Shown: positions 55,775-57,672 of the stretch, piece after piece
Numbering within the stretch: the stretch's first letter is position 1
Layout of the letters: each line of letters starts with the position of its first letter
NCBI RefSeq assembly: GCF_050920415.1
Contig: NZ_CP169309.1
From: Escherichia coli
GTDB taxonomy: Bacteria; Pseudomonadota; Gammaproteobacteria; Enterobacterales; Enterobacteriaceae
Length of the DNA: 64,000 bases
Reading direction: 5' to 3' (one strand)
Made by a program: the position numbers and the translations under genes
The notes under the pieces: generated by a model
Told to the model about the DNA's origin: nothing
The model's database searches: none
The model's input: only the letters and a program-made list of their open reading frames with translations

Positions 55775-56710
55775 TTATTTGTCTTTTTGTTTTTGTAATT
55801 TATGGATATTATCAGGCCCATATTTAATAACCATGCTTTTATAAAACGATGGCTCTATGTTTTTAGCGAATGCAAGTAGCCCAACTAATTTATTGTATTC
55901 GTCAGCAGGTAACTTTCCATTTATAAAATGATGGATCATGGCAGAGATTTTTCTTTTCCTTTCTCTACCTATAGATAATTTATTATCGTTTGTTAGAGTT
56001 ATACCAGTAACGTGACGGTTATGCCCTTTTGAAGAAAATACTGTTTTCTCATGATTGATTCTAATCTTACCTAAAGAATATTTTGGTAGTATGTTTTCAA
56101 GCATGTCAGGTATATCAAACAAAACATCTTTATTATTTGTTGAAAAGGTTAAGTCATCAGCATAACGAGTATAGTTAACGCCAATTTTAGAGCATATTTT
56201 TTGAACCTCAATATCCCAAAAGTACATCACAAAATTTGATATTAAAGGTGAACTTGGTGCTCCAATGCTTAATCTTAAATTACTATTTCTCTTGGATTTG
56301 AAGAATAATATATTCTCAAGTATTACTTTATCATCTGCAGTTAAATCAATATTTGCAAGTCGTAACTTTGAGAAAAATAGACGTGGTGTTATGCTAGGGA
56401 AAAAATTCTCAAAATCCATCTTCAACAAGTATTTAGTATGAAGATGAATTTGAGCATTGGTCTTAATGCTACTACCCTTTTTATATGCAAATGCGCATTC
56501 ATGAACGGGTAATTTATCGGATAAATACTCAGTAATTGCACGTTGTATAAATTTTAGCTCTTTCGATGGATGTGCAATAGTTCTCTTCTTGTCTGAGTTT
56601 CTTTTTGCGATTCTATATATTTTATAGCGATAAGGTGCCGTCAATGAAAAAGAAATGATTTCACTTTTCTTGGTTAATAGTAAGTCTGAAATATGCTGTA
56701 ATATGTCCAT
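55775..56710 (-). CDS. Retron-type reverse transcriptase
   Basis: 311 aa; RT active site YADD (…NYTRYADDLTF…), retron-typical VTG motif (…NRHVTGITL…) and a size typical of retron RTs; AT-rich codon usage. Confidence 0.85.
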   Translation of the reverse strand: MDILQHISDLLLTKKSEIISFSLTAPYRYKIYRIAKRNSDKKRTIAHPSKELKFIQRAITEYLSDKLPVHECAFAYKKGSSIKTNAQIHLHTKYLLKMDFENFFPSITPRLFFSKLRLANIDLTADDKVILENILFFKSKRNSNLRLSIGAPSSPLISNFVMYFWDIEVQKICSKIGVNYTRYADDLTFSTNNKDVLFDIPDMLENILPKYSLGKIRINHEKTVFSSKGHNRHVTGITLTNDNKLSIGRERKRKISAMIHHFINGKLPADEYNKLVGLLAFAKNIEPSFYKSMVIKYGPDNIHKLQKQKDK

Positions 56711-57672
56711 TATTTTATCTCCTCAGCCATTTCTTTTTTTGCTATTATTTGACGTAGCGCTGTAATTCTTCGTTTTGATAATGGATCGGTTAATGTTACA
56801 AAAGATTGTCTAAACTTCATTGTCAATTGTGGATTATCTATGAGTTTATTTTCTTTAGTTTTACCAAATTTTACCCATTTGCGTTCTTTTAATGGAAAGT
56901 AATATTTGTTTGAGCTATATGATAAAACGTCTATAAAACCAACTTTCTGAAGTAAATAAATTGATCTGTTAATAATTTTTGTCGAGATATTAATCCCTGA
57001 TGAATTTAGGGCTAGTTCTATTTCACTAAGTTGTATTGGGAAGCAAAGAGATATAATTTCAGTAATTAGAAGTGCTATATGCCCAGAATTATCCTTACTG
57101 AATTGTTCTGTTTTTGGGATTGATGAAAGTTTTTCTTTTATATTTACACATAAATCATCAAGAAAATCATCATCGTATTTTAAAACTTCAGGATCTGGCC
57201 AAGGATAGATTACAACAGAGGATGAAACTTTCTTCTTAATATACTCAAGTGGGCCTAAATAAATGAATGAGTCCTCACCGGATACTTCTTCCTCTGAAGC
57301 AACAATCAGTATTTTTTTAAATAGTTCTGATTTGTTGCAAAATATACCTAGCTCAACTAATGATCCTGGACTTTCTAAAAAAATGATAATAAGAGATGAA
57401 ATACTGGCTATATCATCTTCAAACACTAGAAGGTCCGGATAGGCATTCTCTTTAAAATAATCCTTGAATGTCTCAGCTAGAATGAAATGTTCGTGAAGTT
57501 CAGGGGCATGTTTTGCTGTGTAAGTAAGTAGTCTATCCCTAAAACTGGGTGGAATTGGTGCACGTACATCGACTTTGCCACCACATACGAAAAGGAGACG
57601 ATGAGATATATCAACATTGAAGTTACTTATGTCTAACAATTCAAATTGTTTTTTAATAGTTTCTTCAAACAT
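56710..57672 (-). CDS. Retron-associated effector-like protein (function unknown)
   Basis: 320 aa ORF between the ncRNA candidate and the RT; its TAA stop overlaps the RT ATG (TAATG), indicating translational coupling; N-terminus (…LLFVCGGK…) is consistent with, but not proven to be, a Rossmann-like nucleoside deoxyribosyltransferase/SLOG-type fold. Confidence 0.6.
   Translation of the reverse strand: MFEETIKKQFELLDISNFNVDISHRLLFVCGGKVDVRAPIPPSFRDRLLTYTAKHAPELHEHFILAETFKDYFKENAYPDLLVFEDDIASISSLIIIFLESPGSLVELGIFCNKSELFKKILIVASEEEVSGEDSFIYLGPLEYIKKKVSSSVVIYPWPDPEVLKYDDDFLDDLCVNIKEKLSSIPKTEQFSKDNSGHIALLITEIISLCFPIQLSEIELALNSSGINISTKIINRSIYLLQKVGFIDVLSYSSNKYYFPLKERKWVKFGKTKENKLIDNPQLTMKFRQSFVTLTDPLSKRRITALRQIIAKKEMAEEIK

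Follow-up and report, generated by a model that had tools for sequence, protein, structure and literature searches.

Analysis of a 64,000-nucleotide stretch of Escherichia coli DNA (contig NZ_CP169309.1), hereafter the window, indicates that an open reading frame (ORF) of 320 amino acids, flanked by a non-coding RNA (ncRNA) on one side and by a reverse transcriptase (RT) on the other, is almost certainly the E. coli orthologue of RcaT, the toxin and effector of the type II-A1 retron Sen2 (msDNA-St85; msDNA, multicopy single-stranded DNA) of Salmonella Typhimurium. By analogy with its Salmonella counterpart, the locus is most likely a phage defence of the toxin–antitoxin (TA) kind with three parts, in which a complex of RT and msDNA would restrain the toxin. 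Publications already cover the gene and its family, its partners in the operon and their role in phage defence, and RefSeq already annotates the sequence. A sequence-only reading of this DNA had taken the ORF for a retron effector, had found its family unclear and had raised the possibility of a new effector type; the profile matches described below confirm the first of these claims and overturn the other two. The anatomy of the locus, the family of the effector, its near-identity to the Salmonella system, its fold, its conserved catalytic motif and the conserved operon layout come from the present analysis, and the toxin and antitoxin behaviour and its triggers from published work on the near-identical Salmonella system.

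The effector, its reverse transcriptase and the type of the retron

The ORF begins with ATG and is read on the minus strand, from 57672 to 56710, a strand that the sequence-only reading did not give. The next ORF after it runs from 56710 to 55775 on the same strand, and its translation of 311 amino acids shows the retron RT hallmarks NAxxH, VTG and YADD. At the junction, which reads T56712-A56711-A56710-T56709-G56708 on the minus strand, the TAA stop of the effector and the ATG of the RT have one base in common (TAATG). A Shine-Dalgarno motif, GAGGAG, stands at 56724–56719, 8 nucleotides before the RT start and within the last codons of the effector. The overlap and the translational coupling proposed earlier are borne out by this arrangement, and the Rfam matches and ORF positions agree with the earlier placement of the ORF between ncRNA and RT, in the order known from Ec73; Ec73 and St85 are both of type II-A1 (PMC7736814). 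The order of ncRNA, effector and RT on the minus strand is very unlikely to be due to chance, given an ncRNA fold more stable than those of shuffled sequences (z = -11.8) and protein family matches with E = 1e-79 to 1e-90. The gene order of the St85 effector family, with the effector gene between msr-msd and the retron RT, is the one found here.

The effector matched the NCBIfam profile NF038232, “retron St85 family effector protein” (STM3845_fam), with 265.4 bits against a cutoff of 100, and the alignment places residues 17–289 on positions 2–275 of the 277 in the profile. The PADLOC model PDLC02928, NDT_II-A (NDT, nucleoside 2-deoxyribosyltransferase), was matched by residues 5–309 (3e-90), and precomputed annotations of the effector's homologues carry the Pfam family PF28093, “STM3845”. 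The full-length Salmonella effector (P0128) is identical at 307 of 319 amino acids (96%); the published RcaT of Retron-Sen2 is referred to as “orf320” (PMC11701397). The exact sequence of 320 amino acids is present at NCBI as [quoted passage not shown], on 72 contigs, and belongs to a single 90% identity cluster of 2,592 member sequences, those listed being mostly from Salmonella. When 5,426 complete E. coli genomes were searched with a 2.3-kb retron query, one contained it at 100% identity (MFDS1022581, NZ_CP169399.1), and PGAP/RefSeq labels both retron genes of NZ_CP169399.1 as St85-family.

The single observation that would favour a new retron effector class, unlike those described, is the Pfam-A scan, which gave no significant domain for the effector (only DUF7952, E = 0.15). 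The copy of Pfam-A that was scanned evidently predates PF28093, and the empty scan was set aside as a sign of novelty, PF28093 being present in the annotations of the homologues. Against a new class stand the full-length match to NF038232 above its curated cutoff together with that to NDT_II-A, the 96% identity to a Salmonella St85-family effector, the exact sequence already named at NCBI and a fold that matches the solved effector of Retron-Eco1. Its probability is consequently close to nil, and the assignment to the St85 family is preferred.

The RT leads to the same retron. It matched NF038233 (retron_St85_RT, “retron St85 family RNA-directed DNA polymerase”) with 353 bits against a cutoff of 235, and 274 of 289 amino acids (95%) are identical to those of the S. 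Typhimurium RT. Among the PADLOC models, RT_II-A gave 1.2e-123 and RT_I-A came close to a tie, with 6.8e-121, because types I-A and II-A1 have RT clade 1 and the ncRNA type in common (PMC7736814). The RT is thus of clade 1 according to NF038233 and PADLOC, and the ncRNA has the msr-msd arrangement, the a1/a2 repeats and the msd hairpin of type II-A1. According to Mestre et al., this type comprises Sen2, Vc81 and Ec73 (PMC7736814), and the locus is a type II-A1 retron, of the same type as Ec73. A review of 2021 labels Retron-Sen2 as “type I-B1” (PMC8632793), which appears to be an error, since it contradicts both the primary table (PMC7736814) and the PADLOC models.

Loci of Vibrio, Serratia and Pseudoalteromonas, whose proteins are relatives at 50–72% identity, and of Salmonella also carry msr, a gene of the STM3845 family and then an RT, and in three of these loci an STnc400 match is found besides msr. 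In these loci the effector stop and the RT start have 1 or 4 nucleotides in common, with a Shine-Dalgarno-like motif before the RT. The presence of both features in distant genera indicates that translational coupling is a trait of the family.

Predicted fold and catalytic site

Structure prediction and a Foldseek search had been suggested by the sequence-only reading as a way to check its proposal. An AlphaFold2 (AF2) model built from 48 homologues, with 46–96% identity to the effector, has a mean predicted local distance difference test score of 91.7 and a predicted template modelling (TM) score of 0.88, and it best matches the solved effector of Retron-Eco1 (Ec86). In the Foldseek search against the PDB, E was under 1e-3 for only four matches. 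Chains of this effector take the first three places (8qbk_E, 8qbl_E and 7xjg_J), with E of about 2e-9, 272–286 aligned columns, 21–23% identity and a TM score of about 0.5; the fourth is a Roco GTPase entry, to which no interpretation is given. A sequence search of the PDB also found the Eco1 effector, with 1.3e-10 for the single sequence and 4.3e-16 for a profile. Membership of the Eco1 subtype, II-A3, was rejected, the single-sequence match (E = 1e-10) extending over residues 26–172 only and the structural matches having 21–23% identity.

The next Foldseek matches divide between the two halves of the protein. For the N-terminal domain they are the NDT-superfamily N-glycosidases MilB, BcmB and BlsM, and for the C-terminal half they are the winged helix-turn-helix (wHTH) repressors CzrA, SmtB, Fur and PerR, with probabilities of 0.9–1.0 and weak E-values. 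In the AF2 model, helices and a β-hairpin at residues 196–260 belong to this predicted winged-helix half, in keeping with the nucleic-acid-binding type of C-terminus that had been guessed.

The NDT-like domain extends over residues 1–185, approximately, and contains the motif E100-S-P-G…E107-L-G, in a form, ESPGSxxELG, common to Eco1. E107 of the effector pairs with the Glu residue of Eco1 that is replaced in 8qbl (TELG→TALG; “inactive effector E106A”), and E100, S101, G103, E107 and G109 are invariant in the 48 homologues down to 46% identity. The residue before E107 is V106; designs of inhibitors against RcaT-Sen2 took V106, “the active-site-adjacent valine”, as their anchor (PMC12405559). 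As modelled, the N-terminal domain adopts the fold of an NDT-like N-glycosidase, with E107 as its predicted catalytic Glu.

The N-terminal region LLFVCGGK…E had previously been compared with Rossmann-like folds of the NDT or SLOG kind. The AF2 model, the Foldseek matches and the PDB searches sustain the NDT-like part of that comparison. The SLOG part found no specific support: the 50 best matches of the Foldseek PDB search include no LOG-family entry and the Pfam scan gave no hit, although no search aimed at SLOG profiles was made. Membership of a canonical NDT family was also rejected, since the Pfam-A scan gave no match of the effector to an NDT profile; Mestre et al. describe the retron NDT-like proteins as only distantly related to PF15891 (PMC7736814).

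An N-terminal fold of the NDT superfamily, and the link to nucleotide salvage first discussed by Mestre et al. (PMC7736814), could also suggest an enzyme that simply adjoins the RT, be it a housekeeping nucleoside 2-deoxyribosyltransferase, one of nucleotide salvage or one of LOG/SLOG type. However, the effector has no match to the canonical NDT families of Pfam, it invariably includes a wHTH half, and in every case, distant genera included, its gene follows an msr and overlaps a retron RT. It is located on a laterally transferred island, and its Salmonella orthologue is a toxin (bioRxiv 10.1101/2020.06.22.160168). A housekeeping function therefore has hardly any probability left, and the effector is best regarded as RcaT.

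Non-coding RNA, intergenic hairpin and island

The coordinates of the features are collected in Table 1. The STnc400 model of Rfam (RF02058) was matched from 57834 to 57710 on the minus strand, with 122.9 bits against a gathering score of 80, and this match covers msd. The msd stem is a perfect inverted repeat of 29 bp (57827–57799 and 57794–57766, 100% complementary), in which a duplex GATC is present, and in the minimum-energy fold a1 (57906–57899) pairs with a2 (57756–57749). All 70 positions of msr, and all 88 of msd plus a2, are identical to those of the Salmonella enterica locus (L002). Given an msd that is 100% identical to that of Salmonella, the same St85-type msDNA would be expected. 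The promoter-like site ends 6 nucleotides before the start of msr in the Rfam match and may act as the promoter of msr; sites of this kind are no more numerous in the region than in shuffles.

Table 1. Positions of the retron components and of other island features in the window
Feature	Position	Strand	Basis
Effector, RcaT / St85-family (STM3845) orthologue	56710..57672	minus	NF038232, PADLOC NDT_II-A, identity to Salmonella P0128, NCBI name, AF2, Foldseek
Retron RT, 311 amino acids	55775..56710	minus	NF038233, PADLOC RT_II-A, 95% identity to S. Typhimurium RT
msr	57837..57906	minus	Rfam RF00170, 74.2 bits against a gathering score of 52
msd, msDNA template, including hairpin stem and a2	57749..57836	minus	RF02058, inverted repeat, identity to Salmonella
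Promoter-like site, TTGAAA – 17 nucleotides – CATAAT	57913..57941	minus	Consensus scan, 10/12 matches, best in region
Terminator-like hairpin, 13-bp stem, 7-nucleotide loop, then T7	57710..57748	minus	Repeat search, fold; within Rfam STnc400 model
Frameshifted tyrosine integrase	57998..59217	minus	ORF pieces of 105 and 259 amino acids; RefSeq “tyrosine-type recombinase/integrase, frameshifted”
Candidate left att repeat, 3' end of mnmE	59548..59564		17-nucleotide direct repeat, 94% identical to 52617–52633
Candidate right att repeat, far island end before tnaC	52617..52633		Direct repeat with 59548–59564

A terminator-like hairpin directly after a2 and before the effector ATG is present in all five loci examined, namely this E. 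coli locus and those of Salmonella, Serratia, Pseudoalteromonas and Vibrio, and the sequences of the stems are unrelated. In the other loci it is found at about 6925–6960 (L002), 2930–2960 (L005), 2955–2985 (L006) and 2940–2985 (L004). A clear T-rich tail follows it in four of the five, and Pseudoalteromonas has only ATTATTC at this place. Because the hairpin lies between the ncRNA and the effector, co-transcription of both requires read-through, which is implied by published plasmid experiments. The hairpin may terminate most of the ncRNA transcripts, so that expression of the effector and the RT would depend on read-through. It may also act as an attenuator, by which the ncRNA would be kept at a high ratio to toxin and RT, with a structure kept across genera and a sequence left free. 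The retron literature cited here contains no discussion of the hairpin after a2 as a regulatory feature.

The retron is carried by an island of about 6.9 kb between mnmE and tnaC (window 52617–59564). Besides the frameshifted integrase, the island contains a RepA-family helicase gene with an internal stop (53649–54950, in pieces of 167 and 170 amino acids), an ash-family gene reduced to a fragment (about 53024–53143) and a gene for a toprim-domain protein that looks intact. A full-length match to the Rfam EFASI RNA (RF02957) was also found inside the island, at 55042–55172 on the minus strand and about 600 nucleotides past the RT stop, with 90.2 bits against a gathering score of 51.2.

Nucleotide identity to Salmonella is 83.7% in mnmE and 99.4% in the spacer between mnmE and the integrase; the integrase reaches 96.7%, the effector 96.5% and the RT 95.1%. 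Both genera have the island at one and the same site, and it is far more similar than the flanking mnmE, which indicates that it was shared laterally between Escherichia and Salmonella. The density of mismatches collapses at 59547, the last dense mismatch, near the mnmE stop, and the 17-nucleotide direct repeat (D3) coincides with this break in identity. At the other end, window positions 52712–52617 are 87.5% identical to the far flank of the Salmonella island, a value comparable to that of the core gene mnmE. The 17-nucleotide repeat, which adjoins the identity break, is a plausible att core. Another repeat, D2 (52685–52709 and 59405–59429, 25 nucleotides, 88%), was rejected as att because of its lack of collinearity with D3 and its position within island-like DNA (99%). 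The locus offers a clean example of lateral retron sharing between genera, with the mnmE site in common, an identical ncRNA and an island at 95–99% identity against 84% for the core gene.

The damage to the integrase, the helicase and the ash gene, and the rarity of the locus among complete E. coli genomes (1 of 5,426), would fit a non-functional relic, that is, a retron stranded on a decayed mobile island and devoid of a defence or TA role in this strain. Nevertheless, both retron ORFs are intact and full length, the TAATG junction and the Shine-Dalgarno motif are kept, msr and msd are 100% conserved and every invariant residue of the family is present, including E107. In the codon comparison with Salmonella, the effector differs by 19 synonymous and 13 non-synonymous changes and the RT by 32 and 13, so that synonymous changes equal or exceed non-synonymous ones although synonymous sites are fewer. 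This pattern is consistent with continued purifying selection on effector and RT, which argues against a dead relic despite the decayed mobility genes. Moreover, the Salmonella copy is experimentally active on a similarly reduced island (bioRxiv 10.1101/2020.06.22.160168). Loss of function in this strain is accordingly very improbable, and a working retron is the preferred interpretation.

Proposed mechanism and comparison with known retrons

Bobonis et al. showed Sen2 to be a tripartite TA system, in which RcaT acts as toxin and the RT with mature msDNA as antitoxin (bioRxiv 10.1101/2020.06.22.160168). Its operon is msrmsd-rcaT-rrtT, and its specificity comes from the RT (bioRxiv 10.1101/2020.06.22.160168). 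The triggers of Sen2 act through msDNA, whose hairpin GATC is methylated by Dam or which is degraded by RecE, and titration of msDNA by a foreign RT (RT-Eco1) is a further trigger (bioRxiv 10.1101/2020.06.22.160242). RacC blocks the Sen2 toxin (bioRxiv 10.1101/2020.06.22.160242). With proteins 95–96% identical, an identical ncRNA and the GATC kept, the Sen2 mechanism is the best supported for the E. coli locus.

In the E. coli locus, a promoter upstream of msr would drive the msr–msd ncRNA, and read-through past the hairpin would yield an mRNA for rcaT and the RT, the two genes being translationally coupled through TAATG and the Shine-Dalgarno motif inside rcaT. The RT would copy msd into msDNA, a long hairpin with a GATC site, and the complex of RT and msDNA, in the role of antitoxin, would bind RcaT and hold it inactive. 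Phage functions could then release the toxin by methylating the msDNA (Dam at GATC), by degrading it (a RecE-type exonuclease) or by sequestering it, and the freed toxin would arrest the growth of the infected cell in an abortive infection. The N-terminal domain of the toxin would work as an NDT-superfamily N-glycosidase with E107 as catalytic Glu, and the C-terminal winged-helix half is its probable site of contact with the RT–msDNA complex. As to the reaction itself, NAD(P)+ hydrolysis with ADP-ribosylation was shown for the distant Eco1 homologue only (PMC12673091), and we infer the toxin chemistry of RcaT from it by analogy.

Several facts weigh against this interpretation, in whole or in part. 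The mobility genes of the island are decaying, as seen in the frameshifted integrase, the internal stop of the RepA helicase and the ash fragment, and a terminator-like hairpin stands between the ncRNA and the effector gene. The effector gave an empty Pfam-A scan, for the reason given above, and the Salmonella comparator (L002 and P0128) is a Salmonella enterica assembly that may not be LT2 or 14028s. The remaining points concern the chemistry. Identity to the solved Eco1 effector is 21–23%, a distance across which NAD+ hydrolysis is transferred by inference. The Sen2 literature cited reports no substrate of RcaT-Sen2 (10.1101/2020.06.22.160168, 10.1101/2020.06.22.160242, PMC12405559), and there was no experimental structure of it as of 2025 (PMC12405559). 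RcaT has also been loosely termed a nuclease, without visible evidence (PMC12804668).

These last points leave room for another toxin chemistry within the same family, either N-glycosidic cleavage of the base of a nucleotide or nucleic acid, or nuclease activity. The low identity and the TM score of about 0.5 to Eco1, the position of the N-glycosidases MilB, BcmB and BlsM, which act on cytidine monophosphate (CMP) or hydroxymethyl-CMP (hmCMP), as the next structural neighbours, the term nuclease in PMC12804668 and the lack of a reported substrate all speak for it. On the other side, the catalytic Glu and the ESPGSxxELG motif are common to Eco1, and no nuclease fold is found among the structural matches; the question, besides, concerns the entire known family rather than the E. 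coli locus. A different chemistry is possible but the less likely outcome, and Eco1-like chemistry is retained here as the working assumption. For the whole family it may be proposed, equally tentatively, that the substrate of II-A1 RcaT differs from that of Eco1 (being, for example, that of a MilB/BcmB-like nucleotide N-glycosidase) and that the hairpin serves as an attenuator.

As a discovery the locus carries little weight, and the case is closed in favour of RcaT of a Sen2-type retron and not of a new effector class. The results obtained in Salmonella, such as the Dam/GATC and RecE triggers, the blocking by RacC and the inhibitors directed at V106, very probably apply to the E. coli allele, by analogy. 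The questions of the substrate and of the hairpin are those of the whole family and not of the E. coli copy alone.

Among known proteins, MilB, BcmB and BlsM have a fold similar to that of the effector's N-terminal domain (Foldseek probability of 0.96–1.0, TM score relative to the target of 0.49–0.56). Unlike the effector, they are single-domain biosynthetic enzymes without a wHTH half or a retron context, and their E-values are only 0.01–0.06. The effector of Retron-Eco1 (PDB 7v9x, 7xjg, 8qbk, 8qbl and 8qbm) resembles RcaT in its two domains and in its NDT-like N-glycosidase, whose E106 is aligned with E107, and it is likewise kept in check by RT–msDNA and set off when the msDNA is methylated (PMC12673091, PMC12804668). 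It differs in sequence and structure (21–23% identity, TM score of about 0.5) and in belonging to clade 9 and type II-A3 instead of clade 1 and type II-A1 (PMC7736814); filament formation and NAD(P)+ hydrolysis have been shown for Eco1 only.

Two further E. coli retrons were compared on the basis of published descriptions. [quoted passage not shown] According to the part of PMC11701397 that deals with retronphage φR73, Ec73 too is carried by a P4-like element, and by that description it is set apart as another member of the subfamily, with integration at selC. Retron-Eco9 of E. coli NILS-16 has the family of the effector and the operon order in common with the locus, and it shows the tripartite TA behaviour predicted for the locus (bioRxiv 10.1101/2020.06.22.160168). 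However, RcaT of Eco9 is 43%, its RT 49% and its msd 58% identical to those of Sen2 (bioRxiv 10.1101/2020.06.22.160168). An identification of the locus as Retron-Eco9 was rejected on these published figures, given that the locus agrees with the Sen2 type at 96% in the effector, 95% in the RT and 100% in msd.

The closest system is that of Sen2/St85, with RcaT known as STM3845 or ORF320. The two copies differ in their host, E. coli here and Salmonella there, and in the content of the island, which in E. coli has the toprim protein, the RepA helicase pseudogene and the ash fragment as extra genes, whereas the Salmonella locus (L002) has none of the three. They also differ by 13 amino acid substitutions in the effector. 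Nine of these are in the C-terminal winged-helix half (F211, L220, S225, I227, E274, P281, T284, F287 and K320) and four in the catalytic domain, and the invariant positions of the family are all unaffected. Otherwise the two agree closely: the effector has 320 amino acids and is 96% identical, the RT is 95% identical, identity in msr and msd is 100%, and both loci have the order msr-msd–rcaT–RT, a TAATG overlap and V106–E107 at the catalytic site. Even the chromosomal site is the same, on an island that adjoins mnmE behind a P4-type integrase.

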